Shown here: positions 1 through 5,955 of the stretch, piece by piece
Layout of the letters: every line of letters begins with the position of its first letter
How positions within the stretch are numbered: position 1 is the first letter of the stretch
IMG/VR virus record: IMGVR_UViG_2663763000_000004
Strand: one strand, 5' to 3'
DNA length: 5,955 nucleotides
DNA from: a virus
Lineage: Duplodnaviria; Heunggongvirae; Uroviricota; Caudoviricetes
Notes under the pieces: generated by a model
Seen by the model: only the letters and a program-made list of their open reading frames with translations
The model's database searches: none
Told to the model about the DNA's origin: nothing
Translations under genes and position numbers: made by a program

Positions 1-52
1 CAGCAATAACAGCCAGCGCACCTTCCATTGCCAGTGAAATATCATCCGACAT
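1..52 (-). CDS. 5' end of a minus-strand gene running off the left edge (N-terminus MSDDISLAMEGALAVIA...); product unknown
   Basis: ATG at 50-52 (reverse complement) preceded by a strong Shine-Dalgarno AGGAGGG (reverse complement of ~55-61) at 4-5 nt spacing; the frame stays open to position 1. Only 17 codons are visible, hydrophobic. Confidence 0.35.
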   Translation of the reverse strand, partial: MSDDISLAMEGALAVIA

Positions 53-167
53 ATTCCCTCCTTTGGTGTTAATCCCGGCGAACGTTTTTACCCCCACCGA
101 CAAATAACATATACTAAAAAAGCGATAGCCATAGCAACGCCTGTAATTGCAAATGCTTCAGGCCAGT

Positions 168-752
168 TCATTGGCGCACCTCCTGCGGCGGTTCTGGTAG
201 CGGCATCCAGTCGGTTACATTGCGGCTCTGTGTTTCGAAAAATTCATCACCATCACGGACTACATCAAAAAACTCACCGTCTCGATATTGCGCATAAAGA
301 ACGAATGCGCCATCACATAAAATAATTACGTGCTGACCGTCATCCGGCATTCGCTCACTACAGCTTATCCAACCATCCAGAGTTACCGGATAGTTGGTTG
401 ACGTTTCCGAGATTTCCCGAAAATTATTGGTTGACGAACCCTTCTTTTCCCGAAAGTTTCCAGCCTGAAGCATGGCGGCGCTGTCTGGCGGGGCAGCATA
501 TAGCGGCACGTATATTTCCGGTTCCTTATCAGCACCGGGTTGCTCTTCCAGTGAGAATGTCTTTCCGGTAAATCGATTCATATAAAGCACGGGCTCTGCT
601 TCCAGCGAAGCCTGAGCAACAAGGGCCAGTGCTAAATCCAACTCAATTGCCTCGAGAGAATTTTTGAATGCTGTCTGTTTTACTGCAAATTTCATCGCCT
701 TTACATTTTCACTAACATGACTGATTAACTGCTCTTTTGTAAAAGTGGTCAT
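168..752 (-). CDS. DUF551-domain phage protein (about 194 aa from the ATG at 752)
   Basis: ORF 168-812. The ORF-track start at 812 is GTG with no RBS; the in-frame ATG at 750-752 is preceded by AAGGAG (reverse complement of 759-764) at 6 nt spacing. The C-terminus WISCSERMPDDGQHVIIL...DGEFF...VTDWMPLPEPP matches the DUF551 signature as I recall it (W-I...P..G........DG.......THWMPLPEPP). Confidence 0.7.
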   Translation of the reverse strand: MTTFTKEQLISHVSENVKAMKFAVKQTAFKNSLEAIELDLALALVAQASLEAEPVLYMNRFTGKTFSLEEQPGADKEPEIYVPLYAAPPDSAAMLQAGNFREKKGSSTNNFREISETSTNYPVTLDGWISCSERMPDDGQHVIILCDGAFVLYAQYRDGEFFDVVRDGDEFFETQSRNVTDWMPLPEPPQEVRQ

Positions 753-808
753 CTCATTCTCCTTTGATGCGAATGCCAGCGACAATTGAAGCCTGATAGC
801 TAATTCAC

Positions 809-997
809 TCACAGTACCGCCTCCTGAAAATTGCCCTGATAGAACGCCAGTACACGCAGCATAACTTCACTCTTCCGGCACTCGCCACAGATTATGTTCT
901 GTTGTCTGTCGTAGCGGCGTATTTCTCCGTCTGGTAACTTTCGAATCAATGTCTGGTCGGTTGTTTTCTCCGCTGCCTTACGCCATACGCGATACAC
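809..997 (-). CDS. small hypothetical protein (62 aa, GTG start)
   Basis: Open frame filling the gap between two better-supported minus-strand genes, abutting the upstream stop. Start is GTG and I see no Shine-Dalgarno; contains a CGEC motif. Support is weak. Confidence 0.3.
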   Translation of the reverse strand: MYRVWRKAAEKTTDQTLIRKLPDGEIRRYDRQQNIICGECRKSEVMLRVLAFYQGNFQEAVL

Positions 998-1204
998 CTA
1001 TTCTGATGTAAAAACACCGTATTTACCGGGCATGTATAAATCGCCACAAGCCAGTACATCCACAAGGCAACGTCTGACTGAATGCCAGCCTGCTCCCGTC
1101 GCTCTCTCCAGTTGTGATATCGTCATGCGTTCATTTTTGCGTACCAGCCCGATAATTCGGGCCTTCAGTTCTTCACGCTGTTCGTGTGTAAAAGGTTTCG
1201 CCAT
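998..1204 (-). CDS. small helix-turn-helix (winged-helix-like) DNA-binding protein, about 68 aa
   Basis: ORF 998-1219, but position 1219 is a TTG; the in-frame ATG at 1202-1204 has GGAGG (reverse complement of 1210-1214) 5 nt upstream. The stretch MTISQLERATGAGWHSVRRCL looks like an HTH recognition region. Confidence 0.55.
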   Translation of the reverse strand: MAKPFTHEQREELKARIIGLVRKNERMTISQLERATGAGWHSVRRCLVDVLACGDLYMPGKYGVFTSE

Positions 1205-1219
1205 AAGCGCCTCCGGCAA

Positions 1220-1990
1220 TCACTTTTCCGACACAATACGACCGGATGAATCGACAATCTGCCGAACAATATCCCGGTGCTTGTTCAGCTCCCGCAGCGC
1301 GGCGCAGACACGCTCCCACTTCTGAACCTGACCTTTTGCCCGGCGCAGCTCGCGGTTAGCCACATGCAGCGATGGTAAAATCAGACCATCCGGATGTTTT
1401 CTGGTGAACAACGGCTGTGACTGCACTGTGACCGCCACACTTTCAGTTTTTATTTCTTCCTGTGTTTCCGCTTCCCGGACTGGTAACGCAACACCTGTTG
1501 GCTGAGGAAAGGCTTTACCATCGGTTTCCGTTACCGATGCAGCTTCCGGCTCTGCCGGTAAATCAGCGCCCGGTATGCAGTAACGAAATTTACCGTTCTG
1601 ATTTACGCGTGCCAGGCGCCCCGTTGCTGTTACGACCGCCAACGTGGAAGCAACCTTGCGAATGCTAACACCGAACTTATCCGCCAGTTCCTCACACGTT
1701 TTAGCCCCATCCTGACAGATAAACTCAATCATCATGTCCGCGGTAACTTTTTGTTCGACCTCCCCGGTCAGCACATCCGGTACTTCAGACTGTGCTGGCT
1801 GCTCTTCGGTTACCCCGGATTCACCTTCACCAGCCAGAAACCAGGTGTGACCCGTTTTATCAACAACGCCATTTTTTTTGAGTTCCCACAGTTCGTTGAG
1901 AACTTCTTCACGGCTGATATCAAGCCGCGCCGCCAGTTCAACAGAATTGGCTTTACCCATCGCTTTCAGTGCATGCAATACGGTTTCCAT
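1220..1990 (-). CDS. phage protein with two winged-helix-like repeats (possibly DUF1627-like), about 256 aa
   Basis: ORF 1220-2041. Two ATG starts are possible: 2041 (overlaps the DnaC-like 3' end by 29 nt, weak and distant SD) and 1990 (GGGAGG 8 nt upstream, 22 nt after the DnaC-like stop), which I prefer. Two similar segments, [29 protein letters not shown] and [28 protein letters not shown], look like repeated wHTH units. The DUF1627 label is recall only. Confidence 0.6.
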
Positions 1991-2012
1991 TAAAACTTCC
2001 TCCCGGTAAAAA

Positions 2013-2759
2013 TCACTTCGCAATTCCTGGCTGGACGACATTCGGACGCCAGCTCTCCCAGTTAAAATTCACCCATCGCCCGCCGTTCATGGTCATGCGA
2101 TCCATAATCCGCTCGCCGAGCAATGTTTTCATGGCCTCATAGTTCAGGTTTGTCAGCATCCCCACGCTGCGCATCGACGCTGTCCGGCGATCAACAATCT
2201 GGTGCAGCACCACCTGCTCGTTTTTCGTCTCGCGCTGAATGCCAATTTCATCAAGAACCAGCAGATCTACTTCGCACAGCTCCCGCAAAAATTTTTCGCC
2301 TGACTGCCCGTCGTCATAGCTGGCGTGCAGGGCGCTCATAACATCAGCCACGGTAACCACAATCACTGTCTGACCGTCTTTCAGCAGGCGATTCCCGATA
2401 GCTGCCGCTAAGTGATTCTTCCCGGTACCAGGTTTTCCGCTGAACGCAAAATTTGTACACCCGGTCATCAGTTCATCGGCGATGGATTTCGCCTGGCTTA
2501 ACGCGTATCGCTGGCCGTCGTTCTGCACCTGGTAATTCGCAAACGAGCATTTACGGTGCAACGGCTGGATGCCTGAACGATTCAGAATTTTTTCCACCCG
2601 CAACTGGCGATTCAGGCGGTTGATCTCCTCGCTACGTTTCTGGCCTTCAGCAAGTTGCCACTCGCGCCACTCCGCTACCGTTCTGAATGGGGCGGTTACA
2701 TGTGGCGGGGTCAGTCGGCGGATGCGTTCCAGAACGCCGCCTGTCGCAATATTTTTCAT
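2013..2759 (-). CDS. DnaC-like replicative helicase loader (AAA+ ATPase)
   Basis: 248 aa with ATG start. Walker [18 protein letters not shown] and Walker [10 protein letters not shown]; the N-terminal MKN...[18 protein letters not shown] and C-terminal [23 protein letters not shown]...[10 protein letters not shown] stretches are near-colinear with E. coli DnaC as I remember it. Sits immediately downstream of the O-like gene, as in the Rac ydaU-ydaV arrangement. Confidence 0.9.
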
Positions 2760-2765
2760 GGTCCG

Positions 2766-3554
2766 TTACCCCCTGAAGCCTGGCGGGATCGCACTGTCCG
2801 GCAACGAGACAGTGTTAACCTGTCGGAGCAACGTCTCAGGCCGAACACCTTTCGGCGCGAACAGGCCCTGGTATTCATTGGCGATGCTGTGTCGAATCAC
2901 CTGCTCAGGTGTAAAACCCTGCTGACGGAATTTTTCCAGCTCCCGTATCGCCCCGTTAGCGCCCTGCTCCGTTCGAATCGGTTTTCGCAATGCCTGCCTG
3001 AACTTAACCCACTCATGCCAGAGTGTTTCCGGCAACCAGTCAGGCAGCTCGATAGCCTCCGGCTCGAATTTTTTAGACGCTCGTTTTTGGCGAGGGGGAT
3101 TTAGGGGGAGATCAGTATTTATATCTTCCTCTTCCTCTTCCTCTGGTAACGCTTTTTGATCCGTTTGTGTAACGCTGCCAGCGTTACCTTTTCGTTTCAG
3201 TTCGCGTATTTTTGTAACTCGCTCGTTTGTAACCGCCCGTTTTTTAGAGCTTTTTCCGTTATGACGTTCAAAGTTAGGTAGAGAAAGCCCACCGTCATTT
3301 TCGACCAGCCATCCAACCTGAATTAACGCATCAGCAAAACCAGCCATAAAAGTGATGCGGTCTATTGCACTTTTTGTAACGCCGCGAGCGTTACAATCTG
3401 CATTACCGTCTATCATTTGTTGATCCGCCCATGCCCAGAAGCGAATAACCTTCCCTAATGCGGCATCTGGATCAATATTCAGAATCTCAGCAAGCCTGAA
3501 TATTTCCGGCTTATCCGGCGTAATAACCTCGAGCTTTATCCAGTTTGAAGCCAT
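2766..3554 (-). CDS. phage replication initiator / replisome organiser (lambda O analogue, YdaU position)
   Basis: 262 aa; ATG at 3552-3554 with AAGGTG 7 nt upstream. Lies directly upstream of, and nearly abutting, the DnaC-like gene. The middle of the gene carries an iteron-like repeat cluster and an acidic EEEEEED linker, as lambda O carries ori. Family is assigned from position and architecture, not from recognised sequence identity. Confidence 0.7.
   Translation of the reverse strand: MASNWIKLEVITPDKPEIFRLAEILNIDPDAALGKVIRFWAWADQQMIDGNADCNARGVTKSAIDRITFMAGFADALIQVGWLVENDGGLSLPNFERHNGKSSKKRAVTNERVTKIRELKRKGNAGSVTQTDQKALPEEEEEEDINTDLPLNPPRQKRASKKFEPEAIELPDWLPETLWHEWVKFRQALRKPIRTEQGANGAIRELEKFRQQGFTPEQVIRHSIANEYQGLFAPKGVRPETLLRQVNTVSLPDSAIPPGFRG
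3145..3237. repeat. iteron-like repeat cluster inside the O-like gene (candidate replication origin)
   Basis: GTAACGC half-sites at 3146-3152 and 3169-3175, inverted GCGTTAC at 3181-3187, and variants GTAACtCGC (3214-3222) and GTAACcGCC (3229-3237); includes the 19-bp palindrome GTAACGCTG-c-CAGCGTTAC (3169-3187). Followed toward the gene 3' end by a pyrimidine-rich (CTTCCT)3 tract and an AT-rich patch (3110-3145). Confidence 0.5.
3374..3396. repeat. second copy of the GTAACGC-N5-GCGTTAC palindrome (TTGTAACGC-cgcga-GCGTTACAA)
   Basis: 9-bp perfect inverted arms inside the 5' part of the O-like gene; same core as 3169-3187 and 3566-3588. Confidence 0.5.
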
Positions 3555-3565
3555 TTGTTTTCACC

Positions 3566-3588
3566 TTGTAACGCTCGCAGCGTTACAT
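3566..3588. repeat. third copy of the GTAACGC-N5-GCGTTAC palindrome, just upstream of the O-like RBS
   Basis: TTGTAACGCt-cgc-aGCGTTACA in the 77-bp spacer between the YdaT-like stop and the O-like start, 14-30 nt upstream of the O-like ATG. No flanking T-run or A-run, so it is not a terminator. Confidence 0.5.
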
Positions 3589-3631
3589 TTAACTGATACC
3601 GAACAAAACAATCCGGCACGATCAATTTCAA

Positions 3632-4054
3632 TCAATGCACTACGACAGAATCGCCGGGCGACCCACCACCGCTGAAATGTGCTTTCCGGTAAACGGCCTG
3701 GACTGCATCATCATGCGCATCAATTGCCGTACTCAACGCTTCCTGCGCCGCCAGTAATGCACGGCGTTCCAGGGTATCGAAGATGCAGAGTCGGTGACGC
3801 AGCTCGCGCGGAAGAATTGCCAGAACCGCAGGGATCAGTTTCTGAATTTTTTCCCTTTGCGCTTTCGTTTCACCTTTCAACCAACGGTGATAGATATTCT
3901 GCTGATTGTTCCAGTCCTTGCCTGGTACAAGGGGCAATTCGCCGCCCCCCTGGCGCAGATATTCTTCAGTAATTGCGTTAGCGACCCACGCCTGCCCTTT
4001 TTCGGCTGCCAGGGCTAACAACACTGATTCGATGTGCTCATGCCTGATTTTCAT
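3632..4054 (-). CDS. ydaT: YdaT-family protein (CII-like regulator / putative toxin of the Rac ydaS-ydaT module)
   Basis: 140 aa; ATG at 4052-4054 overlaps the Cro-like stop as ATGA. The sequence MKIRHEHIESVLLALAAEKGQAWVANAITEEYLRQGGGELPL... matches my recollection of E. coli K-12 Rac YdaT (also 140 aa) very closely. It occupies the cII position between cro and the replication genes. Confidence 0.7.
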   Translation of the reverse strand: MKIRHEHIESVLLALAAEKGQAWVANAITEEYLRQGGGELPLVPGKDWNNQQNIYHRWLKGETKAQREKIQKLIPAVLAILPRELRHRLCIFDTLERRALLAAQEALSTAIDAHDDAVQAVYRKAHFSGGGSPGDSVVVH

Positions 4055-4293
4055 GAATCAACCGCTCCTATGCTGTTTTCGCTATGCTTACCGTCTGGGG
4101 GGAATACATCGTCAAGTCCACAATGAGCGCCAAGCCGATTAAGGGTAGAAACAATTTTTCTGCACTCCTCTAGTCCAGGGGTACGAAAATTTGCTTCGTA
4201 ATTTGCCAGTCGGCTTTGTATCCACCCTAACTGAACAGCAAGTTGTCTTTGAGACAGCCCAAGCTGTTTTCGATATGTTGAAATTTTGTTCAT
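4051..4293 (-). CDS. Cro-like HTH-XRE transcriptional regulator (80 aa)
   Basis: ATG at 4291-4293 with GGAGG (reverse complement of 4301-4305) 6 nt upstream. N-terminal HTH QLGLSQRQLAVQLGWIQSRLANYE of the Cro/C1 (XRE) type. First gene of the minus-strand operon, divergent from the repressor. Confidence 0.8.
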   Translation of the reverse strand: MNKISTYRKQLGLSQRQLAVQLGWIQSRLANYEANFRTPGLEECRKIVSTLNRLGAHCGLDDVFPPDGKHSENSIGAVDS

Positions 4294-4389
4294 TGAAAAC
4301 CTCCGATGACAATTTTAAACACACCTTGTGTTATATGGTCAATCTGTTTTGTGTTTTATGTAAATCACGATTCGTGATACAAGGATGCA
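4294..4389. promoter_or_regulatory. divergent immunity control region (PR-like / PRM-like promoters with operator candidates)
   Basis: 96-bp AT-rich spacer between the divergent HTH genes. Contains a 15-bp inverted repeat AACACAcctTGTGTT (4318-4332), a 15-bp perfect palindrome ATCACGAtTCGTGAT (4364-4378) just upstream of the repressor SD, and direct repeats TTGTGTTaTATG (4326-4337) and TTGTGTTtTATG (4349-4360). On the minus strand, a TTGACC, 17 nt, TTTAAA/TAAAAT arrangement could be the promoter for the Cro-like gene. Confidence 0.6.
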
Positions 4390-4809
4390 ATGGAAAAAGA
4401 AAACGAAAAAATTGCCGCTAGTAGGCTCAATGACAAAATTGCAATGCGTCTTAAAGAGCGCAGGCAGAAGCTTGGTTTATCTCAAGGAAAACTTGCTGAA
4501 ATCTGCGGATGGACGCAATCGCGTATAGGTAACTATGAGGCGGGCAGCAGAAATGTTGGAGTGCATGACGCTGTCGTATTGGGAAAGGCACTTGGCATAT
4601 CTCCTCCTGAGCTCCTATTTGGAGAACAGGAATCTTCTGAATTGTGGTTAAATGAATCCCAACGAAAACTTCTTGAGTTGTTTAACCAGCTACCTGGCTC
4701 AGAACAACAACGAATGATTGAGCTATTTGAAGTCCGGCTAAAAGAAATCGATGAGTATGTAGAAAAATATTTGAGAGGCAGGCTTAAAGATAATCCCCCA
4801 CCGGAGTAA
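4390..4809 (+). CDS. DicA-like prophage repressor (N-terminal HTH-XRE, C-terminal dimerisation region, no S24 peptidase domain)
   Basis: 139 aa; ATG at 4390 with AAGGA 4-5 nt upstream. HTH KLGLSQGKLAEICGWTQSRIGNYE; the C-terminal SQRKLLELFNQLPGSEQQRMIELFEVRLK resembles the DicA C-terminus (SPKELELLELFNALPESEQ...) as I recall it. Divergent from the Cro-like gene. Confidence 0.8.
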   Translation: MEKENEKIAASRLNDKIAMRLKERRQKLGLSQGKLAEICGWTQSRIGNYEAGSRNVGVHDAVVLGKALGISPPELLFGEQESSELWLNESQRKLLELFNQLPGSEQQRMIELFEVRLKEIDEYVEKYLRGRLKDNPPPE

Positions 4810-4838
4810 TGATCTTGCTATCACAGTAATATGCCAAT

Positions 4839-4864
4839 CAGCCCGCTATCAGCGGGCTTTTTTG
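4839..4864 (+). terminator. rho-independent terminator downstream of the repressor gene
   Basis: Perfect 8-bp GC-rich stem AGCCCGCT (4840-4847) / AGCGGGCT (4851-4858) with a 3-nt loop ATC, followed by a T-run (4858-4863), 30 nt after the repressor stop. Confidence 0.8.
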
Positions 4865-4892
4865 TACCATCATCATATGACACCCACCACAA

Positions 4893-4935
4893 AACACATT
4901 TCGTGTTGACATAAGAAAACGCATTGTGTTTAATA
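4893..4935 (+). promoter_or_regulatory. PL/OL-like promoter with overlapping operator-like palindromes, driving the downstream accessory gene
   Basis: -35 TTGACA (4906-4911), 17-bp spacer, -10 TTTAAT (4929-4934) with TG at 4927-4928. The inverted repeat AACACatttcGTGTT (4893-4907) overlaps the -35, and an imperfect repeat AAACGCattGTGTTT (4917-4931) overlaps the spacer and -10. The motif AACAC-N5-GTGTT is the same as at 4318-4332. Confidence 0.55.
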
Positions 4936-5103
4936 AGCATATCCAAACAACGCCCCACCAGAGAACGGCTGGACAATACCTCGAGTTATCCAGCCACTGA
5001 ACAGGGCTAAGTAGCCAGCCTGAGGCATACGAACATGACGGCAGTTGTTGATTGATACAAAGCGCAGTAGATAAAACGTTCCGCCACCCGGCGTTAAGGG
5101 GAA

Positions 5104-5805
5104 ATGAGGTCAACANNNNNNNNNNNNNNNNNNNNNNNNNNNNNNNNNNNNNNNNNNNNNNNNNNNNNNNNNNNNNNNNNNNNNNNNNNNNNNNNCCAGG
5201 AGATTGCAGCACACACACTTCGTCATCGTCTGAACGAACTTGAATTGGAATCGGTAACGAAAAAAGACACTGATAATATGGCTCGTAATGTGCGCGATGC
5301 GTTTACCGGATTGTATTTCTGTGCGTCTATAAATAAACACGACTCAGAGAGTGTGGCAAATAAAATTGCAGAAACGACAGCGCAAAACATCAATACGAAA
5401 CCAACGGAAGAAGAAATTGATCAGTTTGCTCATGATGCTGGTTTAAAAAACAAGAAAGAAAAATCGCCATATGCGGGGAACATGTTTGTTTATGACAATC
5501 TCATCAGAATTCGTGGCGAAATTCCGGCGGAATACCTGGCAAGAGTCCATCAGGCATTGCTTAAAAATTTGGAAACAGAATTATTTGATGGCAACACTAA
5601 CGGTTTCTTCATGGTATCAGGCCTTGAGAAAGACTGGGATGCAGAAAAACGCTGGAATGTTGCTACATGGTTATTCAGTAACAGAGCCGCTGCACTGGAA
5701 GCTTCGGCATGTATTTGCGGCCTGTTCTTAACAGACCACAAATATAATCTGGATGTGTACAGTTATATTTACGCTGAACACGGTCCACTCTGGATTGACT
5801 GGTAA
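5104..5805 (+). CDS. hypothetical protein of unknown function; lower-GC accessory gene in the cI-proximal position, interrupted by an assembly gap
   Basis: ATG at 5104 with strong SD AAGGGG (5095-5100); 80 N at 5116-5195; then a continuous open frame 5196-5805 ending in TAA (5803-5805). Hand-counted GC in three 60-nt blocks (5281-5460) is roughly 35-43 percent, against roughly 50 percent in a replication-gene block (2401-2460). The gap length, and so the frame link between 5104 and 5196, cannot be trusted; an in-frame ATG at 5278 has no SD. No motif I recognise. Confidence 0.5.
   Translation: MRSTXXXXXXXXXXXXXXXXXXXXXXXXXXXQEIAAHTLRHRLNELELESVTKKDTDNMARNVRDAFTGLYFCASINKHDSESVANKIAETTAQNINTKPTEEEIDQFAHDAGLKNKKEKSPYAGNMFVYDNLIRIRGEIPAEYLARVHQALLKNLETELFDGNTNGFFMVSGLEKDWDAEKRWNVATWLFSNRAAALEASACICGLFLTDHKYNLDVYSYIYAEHGPLWIDW
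5116..5195. other. assembly gap (80 N)
   Basis: Run of exactly 80 ambiguous bases, a conventional scaffold-gap placeholder. Confidence 0.99.
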
Positions 5806-5955
5806 TTATAAGGAAACACCAGCAGGGCCGCGGCGACCAACAGAACGATTAAAATCAATAATGCCATTATAAAGGACATTATTTAATTTATCGTCGAATG
5901 CTGATTCTGTGAGCCTCAACTCTGAATGAGTTTTTAATAACCCTGATTGCCTGAG

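Follow-up and report, generated by a model that had tools for sequence, protein, structure and literature searches.

What does a lambdoid prophage carry in the slot beyond its repressor gene, and is that cargo meant for the lysogen or for the lytic cycle? The question is raised by one end of the Caudoviricetes record IMGVR_UViG_2663763000_000004, of which a stretch of 5,955 nucleotides (nt), hereafter the window, was analyzed. The initial annotation saw here a single open reading frame (ORF; 5104/5196-5805) of lower GC content, read from its own operator-controlled promoter in a cI-proximal accessory slot, and proposed it as a candidate superinfection-exclusion or anti-phage gene. Our analysis shows that positions 4390-5955 cover the beginning of a left early operon, equivalent to pL and of the dicBF type, in a lambdoid, Rac/Qin-like prophage of Escherichia coli, and that two genes meet head-on in the slot, one encoding an early protein of 212 amino acids (aa) and the other, on the opposite strand, a basic protein of 69 aa. 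The C-terminal domain of the former and the whole of the latter behave as one cassette, in that one is always accompanied by the other, their divergence runs in parallel, and purifying selection acts on both. We give a probability of roughly one in three to an explanation in which the small protein acts as an accessory or exclusion-type factor and the early 212-aa protein as its cognate neutralizer.

The single ORF of the initial annotation is a chimera of two genes, produced by an assembly gap. In a genome sequence search, positions 4810-5955 were 100% identical to prophages found at ttcA in E. coli ML35, O145 and O157:H7, and the flanks of the gap matched 70 complete E. coli genomes with approximately 100% identity on both sides. 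Because the genomic matches span 1258 bases for a query of 1146 bases, the 80-N gap stands for 192 bases, and these contain most of a 50-aa DUF1391 gene as well as the first 10 codons of the separate 212-aa gene. The DUF1391 gene, a homologue of ydfA/ydaF (5115..5195, plus strand; 8306-8458 in L001, the 17 kb locus fetched around the ML35 match and the reference for all L001 coordinates; Pfam PF07151, E = 2.9e-29), shows only one base in the window, namely position 5115 where its ATG begins, while the rest of it lies in the gap. The ATG at 5104 is out of frame and falls inside the Shine-Dalgarno region of this ydfA-like gene, and what can be seen of the 212-aa gene extends from 5197 to the gene end at 5805. 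A 202-aa partial protein in public annotation (WP_057728331.1, locus tag BL722_005183, cluster member P0346) is probably the truncated gene created by this same gap. The practical lesson is that a scaffold gap of 80 Ns concealed 192 bases, so that two genes passed for a single one.

Once the gap is accounted for, the 212-aa protein can be divided into a helical N-terminal module (N-module; residues 11-70, MEFKDLP...NVRDAFTGLY, 5197..5376, plus strand), supported by PHROGs and profile searches, and an acidic alpha/beta C-terminal domain (C-domain; residues 97-212 plus the stop codon, 5455..5805, plus strand), supported by an AlphaFold2 model, by the ratio of nonsynonymous to synonymous substitution rates (dN/dS), and by remote homologues. 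The partner gene that had been suspected beyond the window does exist: a convergent ORF for the basic 69-aa protein runs off the window end, leaving its 3' part inside (stop codon and residues 21-69, 5806..5955, minus strand; L001 9109-9318; phrog_4274, E = 1e-51) and its start 60 bases outside. The stop codons of the two genes abut, TAATTA being TAA followed by TTA. In 74 of the 74 IMG/VR loci that encode the small ORF it is the C-domain that abuts it, and the identities of the two co-vary across these loci (100/100, approximately 85/82%), with N-module identity anywhere between 44 and 100%. By the Nei-Gojobori method, dN/dS was 0.14-0.19 for the C-domain and 0.19-0.27 for the 69-aa ORF, and dS was 0.50-0.64 and 0.31-0.46, respectively, which are broadly similar values, whereas that of the N-module (0.19-1.57) was quite different. 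Taken with the co-occurrence, these figures indicate that both are real genes with a shared history, and that recombination occurs between the N-module and the C-domain. The same pair is found in Salmonella, grafted onto a different N-module and behind a different, C/Cox-type switch. There, C-domain homologues 27-32% identical to that of the window sit in prophages with int and a C-like repressor/Cox switch, and are again followed by a convergent ORF of 64-69 aa, 44-52% identical to ours and sharing with it the motifs IEKQIEC...SGLLK...GRRGPAGV-L. In both E. coli and Salmonella the C-domain is acidic (isoelectric point 4.9) and the small protein basic (9.4-9.9). A run of seven A residues (A7) is present at codons 3-5 of the 69-aa ORF, just past the window end (L001 9300-9312).

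As for what these proteins might be, the impression that no known motif is present was borne out, as neither the 69-aa protein nor the 212-aa protein, whole or split into its two parts, gave a usable match in Pfam, NCBIfam, PADLOC or PDB sequences even at E = 10. No PADLOC-DB v2 defence model matched either protein at E values up to 1, which does not support the suggested anti-phage role. Among PHROGs, only families of no known function were recovered for the two proteins: phrog_2151 matches the 212-aa protein over its full length, and PHROGs 1363, 9419, 6937 and 33007 match solely residues 1-51 to 1-75. Close homologues (65-100% identity), annotated as hypothetical or "Ybl81", are confined to Escherichia and a few Salmonella. 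The full-length gene is present in 568 of 5,426 complete E. coli genomes, mostly Shiga-toxin-producing strains, and approximately 275 further E. coli genomes match it partially, those sampled retaining only its first 153-156 bases; no full-length copy was found in phage records. The 212-aa protein is not a core phage protein, in agreement with the initial annotation.

The modular nature of this protein emerged most clearly from a profile search against 1.84 billion representatives, where 36 of the 47 matches covered only the N-terminal 34-90 residues and then continued into unrelated C-termini, and the C-domain was seen in two Salmonella proteins only, with a different N-terminus. Alignment of the homologues revealed two allelic types of N-module on one conserved C-domain. 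One Salmonella protein of 152 aa (P0219) has a copy of the E. coli-type EFKDLP module behind its Salmonella N-module, which makes EFKDLP a separable domain that can also sit internally. An N-module profile (residues 16-71) also matched 14 and 9 repeated stretches in two very large proteins, P0140 (2862 aa) and P0145 (5212 aa), respectively, at E values of approximately 1e-10, which may reflect a shared helical repeat or an artefact of composition. The YdfB and YdfC proteins of K-12 were compared with the N-module as possible relatives, with no visible similarity. The C-domain was modelled with confidence, and the model (predicted local distance difference test score [pLDDT] 79.5, predicted template modelling score [pTM] 0.73; topology b-b-a-b-b-a-b-b) had no significant Foldseek match, and structural searches returned generic two-layer sandwiches only. 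When E. coli is compared with Salmonella, the positions that do not vary hold for the most part hydrophobic residues or Gly/Pro; they include an FDGxxNG loop, none of them is a His, Lys or Arg, and no conserved catalytic residues were seen. This pattern suggests a binding domain rather than an enzyme. No DNA-binding motif was recognized by Pfam in the E. coli protein, and no membrane segment was found in either protein, with maximal 19-residue Kyte-Doolittle means of 1.16 for the 212-aa and 0.22 for the 69-aa protein.

The expectation that the content of this slot varies among related prophages was confirmed, in that at least five cassette types lie between the same flanks. In related E. coli prophages the N-module carries other C-termini, and every one of them brings a convergent ORF of its own: a tail of 52-59 residues comes with a 64-aa ORF and a 186-aa protein with a zinc-ribbon-like ORF, while in phage Evi and PPompW a 135-aa protein comes with a 77-aa ORF, and further types were seen beyond these. 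The convergent ORFs of several types begin from the same conserved ATGGAGGATAAAATG, which provides a GGAGG and a start codon and is followed by the conserved pre-dicF region, a flank kept even between E. coli and Salmonella. The dock is thus bounded by the N-module on one side and by the conserved GGAGG-ATG and pre-dicF sequence on the other. In Salmonella, likewise, the resident N-module (MFNVKRNG...) carries many alternative C-termini, several of them with their own convergent ORFs, and in about half of the Salmonella homologues an HTH_3 domain is inserted between the N-module and the C-terminal part. Within the flank, a hairpin follows the invariant GTGTCCGGCGCAC motif (minus-strand reading; L001 9340-9365) and recurs at homologous positions in L002, L004, L006, L007, L010 and L170. 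Its pairing is kept despite differing stems (GACCACACG/CGTGTTGGTC, CTCCAC/GTGGAG, TTCCCGA/TCGGGAA); the hairpin may represent an RNA structure conserved within the 5' portion of the DicF precursor.

From these arrangements we would tentatively propose, while regarding it as doubtful in its full form, that the ydfA/cox-to-pre-dicF slot of Rac/Qin-like Escherichia and Salmonella prophages is an undescribed docking site for polymorphic two-gene cassettes, each consisting of a C-terminal domain fused in frame to the resident N-module, and made upon derepression only, and of a cognate small protein encoded on the opposite strand and using the resident ribosome-binding site, the pairs being exclusion or abortive factors with matching early self-immunity. 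A literature search (ybl81, WP accessions, DUF1391, lambdoid defence hotspots) did not return a description of the gene or of the architecture; the cassette-in-dock architecture seems to be undescribed and the gene family is uncharacterized, while this kind of accessory slot is already known. Rac/Qin-like prophages with this operon are present in a large share of E. coli genomes, and for decades no function has been assigned to the promoter-proximal genes of the dicBF/Rac early-left operon; the dock architecture offers a way to mine many more such convergent pairs, IMG/VR containing more than 527 loci with the N-module.

When the early gene is transcribed bears directly on its possible role. 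Upstream of the slot, the plus strand encodes a DicA-like prophage repressor of 139 aa (4390..4809; Pfam HTH_3, E = 4.7e-13), whose top NCBIfam match is DicA at 57 bits, below the cut-off of 101 bits; the ML35 counterpart is annotated as a helix-turn-helix (HTH) protein, and its position is identical to that of dicA in Qin. The terminator described after the repressor gene was recovered by a terminator scan (4840..4864, plus strand; L001 8031-8049), with a stem-loop at 4840-4858, whose 8-bp stem has 6 GC pairs, and a T-run at 4859-4864. Equally well founded was the report of a promoter overlapped by operator-like palindromes. This early-left (pL/dicB-type) promoter with its two operators (4893..4934, plus strand) was identified by sequence reading and pattern search and is sigma-70-like, with a -35 element TTGACA at 4906-4911, a 17-nt spacer and a -10 element TTTAAT at 4929-4934; our promoter scanner, which demands an A at position 2 of the -10 hexamer, passed over it, and the promoter was read by eye. 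The palindrome AACAC-N5-GTGTT occurs at 4893-4907 over the -35 element, at 4916-4930 over the -10 element with one mismatch, and, by pattern search, once more between the cro-like gene and the repressor gene (AACACACCTTGTGTT, 4318..4332, no strand assigned). Three copies compare with 0.22 expected, and three were reached in 0 of 200 shuffles. These are putative operators of the prophage repressor and, since the promoter is flanked by two copies of the operator found between the repressor and cro-like genes, it is predicted that it should be shut in the lysogen. Its position is that of the Qin dicBF promoter, which is repressed by DicA/DicC (PMC5069750).

Several consequences follow for the initial annotation, whose observations were partly confirmed and whose interpretation was partly supported. 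The promoter is not the gene's own, as it serves the whole early-left (dicBF-type) operon, with the ydfA-like gene first. The long leader does exist (4941..5114, plus strand, approximately 175 nt, with a Shine-Dalgarno GAGG at 5107-5110, by sequence reading) but precedes the ydfA-like gene and not the 212-aa gene. Its structure is ordinary (RNA fold z-score 0.30) and no Rfam match was found in it; an antitermination RNA or nut/put-like element was considered and dropped given the absence of an Rfam match and a fold no better than that of shuffled sequence, and a ydaG-like ORF was looked for within the leader and is not present. A weak terminator-like hairpin lies on the minus strand of the leader at 4951-4967 (CGTTCTCTGGTGGGGCG then TTGTTTGG); a transcript of the convergent small gene, which would be antisense to both early genes, could terminate there, and terminator-like sites in that region are not above chance (5 vs 3.1 +/- 1.8). 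The lower GC content was correct for the 212-aa gene (0.41-0.42, with 0.37 for the opposite-strand ORF) when compared to the replication genes (0.50-0.55), but does not single it out, as the repressor (0.43) and cro-like (0.44) genes are equally low. More importantly, because the repressor's operators lie on the promoter, the lysogen should not express the 212-aa gene, which is the opposite of what is expected for cargo of the rexAB/sieB type expressed there.

How could such a pair work? We propose that the 69-aa protein would act as an accessory factor, for exclusion or abortive infection, whose production does not depend on the early operon. Once the repressor is lifted, the early 212-aa protein would bind and neutralize it through the cognate C-domain, a putative interaction that would provide the prophage with self-immunity; head-on transcription from the early promoter might also damp the small gene, and the prophage's own lytic growth would not be blocked. 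The N-module would serve as a generic scaffold or dimerization part. The combination of an acidic C-domain with a basic partner in both genera was counted in favor of a binding role for the C-domain. The dock, together with the sieB-equivalent position discussed below, turns this into a concrete hypothesis, testable by cloning, of a small factor with a cognate early neutralizer.

We acknowledge that a number of results weigh against this explanation. Co-inheritance could be purely physical, as the coding regions abut between conserved flanks and recombination in the flanks would move both. No membrane segment is present in the small protein, which resembles neither SieB nor any PADLOC model. 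A role in DNA binding or regulation, for which the proposed mechanism has no need, is suggested by the HTH_3 domain that about half of the Salmonella homologues carry. In 8 of the 74 IMG/VR loci (L063-L070, mostly from one series of IMG genome ids) the A7 run is an A6, and the 69-aa ORF is frameshifted, which could be either a homopolymer sequencing error or slippage-based on/off switching. Finally, the 69-aa ORF has a GGAGG Shine-Dalgarno, but a search for its sigma-70 promoter gave nothing convincing: the sole scanner match overlaps the start codon, and the best candidate found by hand, TTTTCA-17-TAAACT approximately 120 nt upstream, matches at 8 of 12 positions. Expression of the small gene in the lysogen is consequently assumed by analogy.

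Alternatively, the two genes might be independent cargo, the 212-aa protein acting early in lytic growth as an accessory protein and binding a host target, for take-over or counter-defence, as lambda Ral, Gam and Kil or Qin DicB do, and the 69-aa gene merely a linked neighbor. In favor of this, its gene shares an early operon under repressor control with DicF, kil and a dicB remnant, which are known host-directed functions, the C-domain does look like a binding rather than a catalytic one, and tight abutment alone would account for the co-inheritance. We nevertheless find this possibility rather unlikely, given that the pair stays together down to the low Salmonella identities reported above for both members, across two genera and two immunity switches, that all other cassette types examined also bring their own convergent ORF, and that the charges of the two partners, one acidic and one basic, complement each other in E. 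coli and Salmonella alike.

The insertion of HTH_3 before the C-domain in about half of the Salmonella homologue clusters could instead mean that the protein is an early regulator, with an ACT/ArgR-C-type oligomerization or ligand-binding C-domain that controls the small gene or the lysis-lysogeny decision, and of which E. coli has a form devoid of the HTH. The Salmonella gene also follows Cox, which is the position of cII in phage 186. However, the E. coli protein has no recognizable DNA-binding motif and the HTH domain is optional with the same C-domain, and in our opinion this explanation is improbable.

A toxin-antitoxin-like or abortive module, where one protein is toxic and the other its antidote, would also account for a two-gene cassette of cognate partners, one acidic and one basic, with an occasional HTH on the acidic one as in type II antitoxins, and the presence of relBE directly after the repressor in a related prophage indicates that such cargo is common nearby. 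Convergent orientation and separate regulation are atypical of these modules, however, no toxin, antitoxin or PADLOC family was matched, no conserved catalytic residues were seen and a small protein that was constitutively toxic would face the lysogen with its antidote repressed, so that we see only a slim chance for this possibility. Very unlikely, lastly, is the original proposal of a separately acquired anti-phage or superinfection-exclusion gene acting from the prophage under its own regulated promoter, as in spite of the variable slot, the lower GC, the unknown family and the positional equivalence to the sieB region, the operon promoter carries the prophage repressor's operators and serves the ydfA-like gene first, the 212-aa gene is on the lytic-operon strand, PADLOC returned no match, and low GC is common to the repressor and cro-like genes.

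The setting of the pair is well defined in ML35, whose prophage at ttcA combines Rac-type int/xis, ralR, recT, recE and kil with a Qin-type DicF small RNA and a dicB remnant. The order in L001 is repressor, DUF1391 gene, 212-aa gene, convergent 69-aa gene, DicF, dicB remnant, kil, recE, recT, ralR, xis and int; DicF (L001 9657-9708, Rfam 75 bits) lies outside the window, in genomes that match the flanks of the gap with 100% identity. The remainder of the window holds the rightward genes, all on its minus strand: a cro-like HTH gene (4051-4293), a YdaT-family gene (3632-4054), a YdaU-like gene (2766-3554), a DnaC/IstB-like gene (2013-2759), a DUF1627 gene (1220-2041) and a DUF551 gene (168-812). 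When positions 1-4800 were compared with ML35, a fixed-offset comparison failed somewhere left of the gap, and the YdaU-like protein is 262 aa long in the window and 289 aa in ML35; the replication region therefore has at least one indel or is mosaic, although 4810-5955 is identical. A perfect 7-1-7 inverted repeat (ATCACGA-T-TCGTGAT, 4364-4378), situated 12 nt upstream of the repressor start codon and unlike the AACAC-N5-GTGTT operators, may be a site for a second regulator, for example the cro-like or YdaT-like protein. In E. coli strain 109, a relB/relE toxin-antitoxin pair lies between the repressor gene and the ydfA promoter (L013 1448-1926), which is the true repressor-proximal, rexAB-like slot and is distinct from the one studied here.

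Among known systems, the closest in layout and in strand arrangement is the dicBF operon of Qin (dicA next to ydfA-ydfB-ydfC-dicF-dicB-ydfD), with which our locus shares a DicA-like repressor, a promoter predicted to be repressed, DUF1391 as first gene, the slot, the pre-dicF region and DicF. The function of the promoter-proximal genes of Qin is unknown too (PMC5069750). Unlike Qin, where the slot holds ydfB/ydfC, ours holds the 212-aa gene and the convergent 69-aa gene; the repressor is of a different immunity type, with the DicA model below its cut-off and different operators, the leader is approximately 100 nt longer, and of dicB ML35 retains no more than a remnant, with Rac-type kil, recE and recT after it.

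A second comparison is with sieB. In lambda, sieB (34482-35036, plus strand) and N (35037-35438, minus strand) are convergent, stop to stop, and in Rac of K-12 sieB (plus strand) converges with the DUF1391 gene ydaF (minus strand) with a 4-nt overlap. The 69-aa ORF, too, runs opposite to the early-left operon and abuts its last promoter-proximal gene, and from these two arrangements it follows that it is the 69-aa ORF, and not the 212-aa gene, that occupies the position and orientation of sieB. The placement of the locus in a cI-proximal accessory slot was therefore right in so far as this is the lambda/Rac sieB site, and wrong as to which element is sieB-like. Relative to Rac of K-12, the 212-aa gene and the 69-aa ORF replace sieB, and a tblastn search of the 17-kb locus with Rac SieB gave chance matches only (E = 0.83 or worse). 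SieB differs in being approximately 160-190 aa long with hydrophobic segments, while the 69-aa product is soluble and has no sequence similarity to it, and Esc is an internal in-frame product, while the putative partner here is a separate early protein. SieB of P22 has a cognate phage-encoded escape function, and a gene lying antisense to a lytic operon is a typical accessory locus of a prophage (PMC7067206). If the docking-site proposal holds true, the dock would represent the sieB/esc logic in modular form and offer a new source of small anti-phage proteins.

With polymorphic toxin-immunity cassettes (CdiA-CT/CdiI, Rhs-CT/RhsI) the pair shares a conserved N-terminal part with swappable C-terminal domains, each with a small partner gene. 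The resemblance is one of architecture only, as here there is no secretion or delivery domain and no recognizable toxin fold (no Pfam domain), the small gene is convergent and not co-directional, and the setting is a prophage early operon. From type II toxin-antitoxin systems the pair differs in matching no toxin or antitoxin family and in having convergent rather than co-directional bicistronic genes. BstA/aba is reportedly a prophage defence with a cognate self-immunity element. HepS evasion is likewise a prophage defence with a self-sparing element (PMC13043305). The mechanism proposed here would share with both the logic of a self-harmful prophage factor coupled with an element that spares its own prophage, but there is no homology to either, and self-immunity would here reside in a putative protein domain supplied by the early operon.

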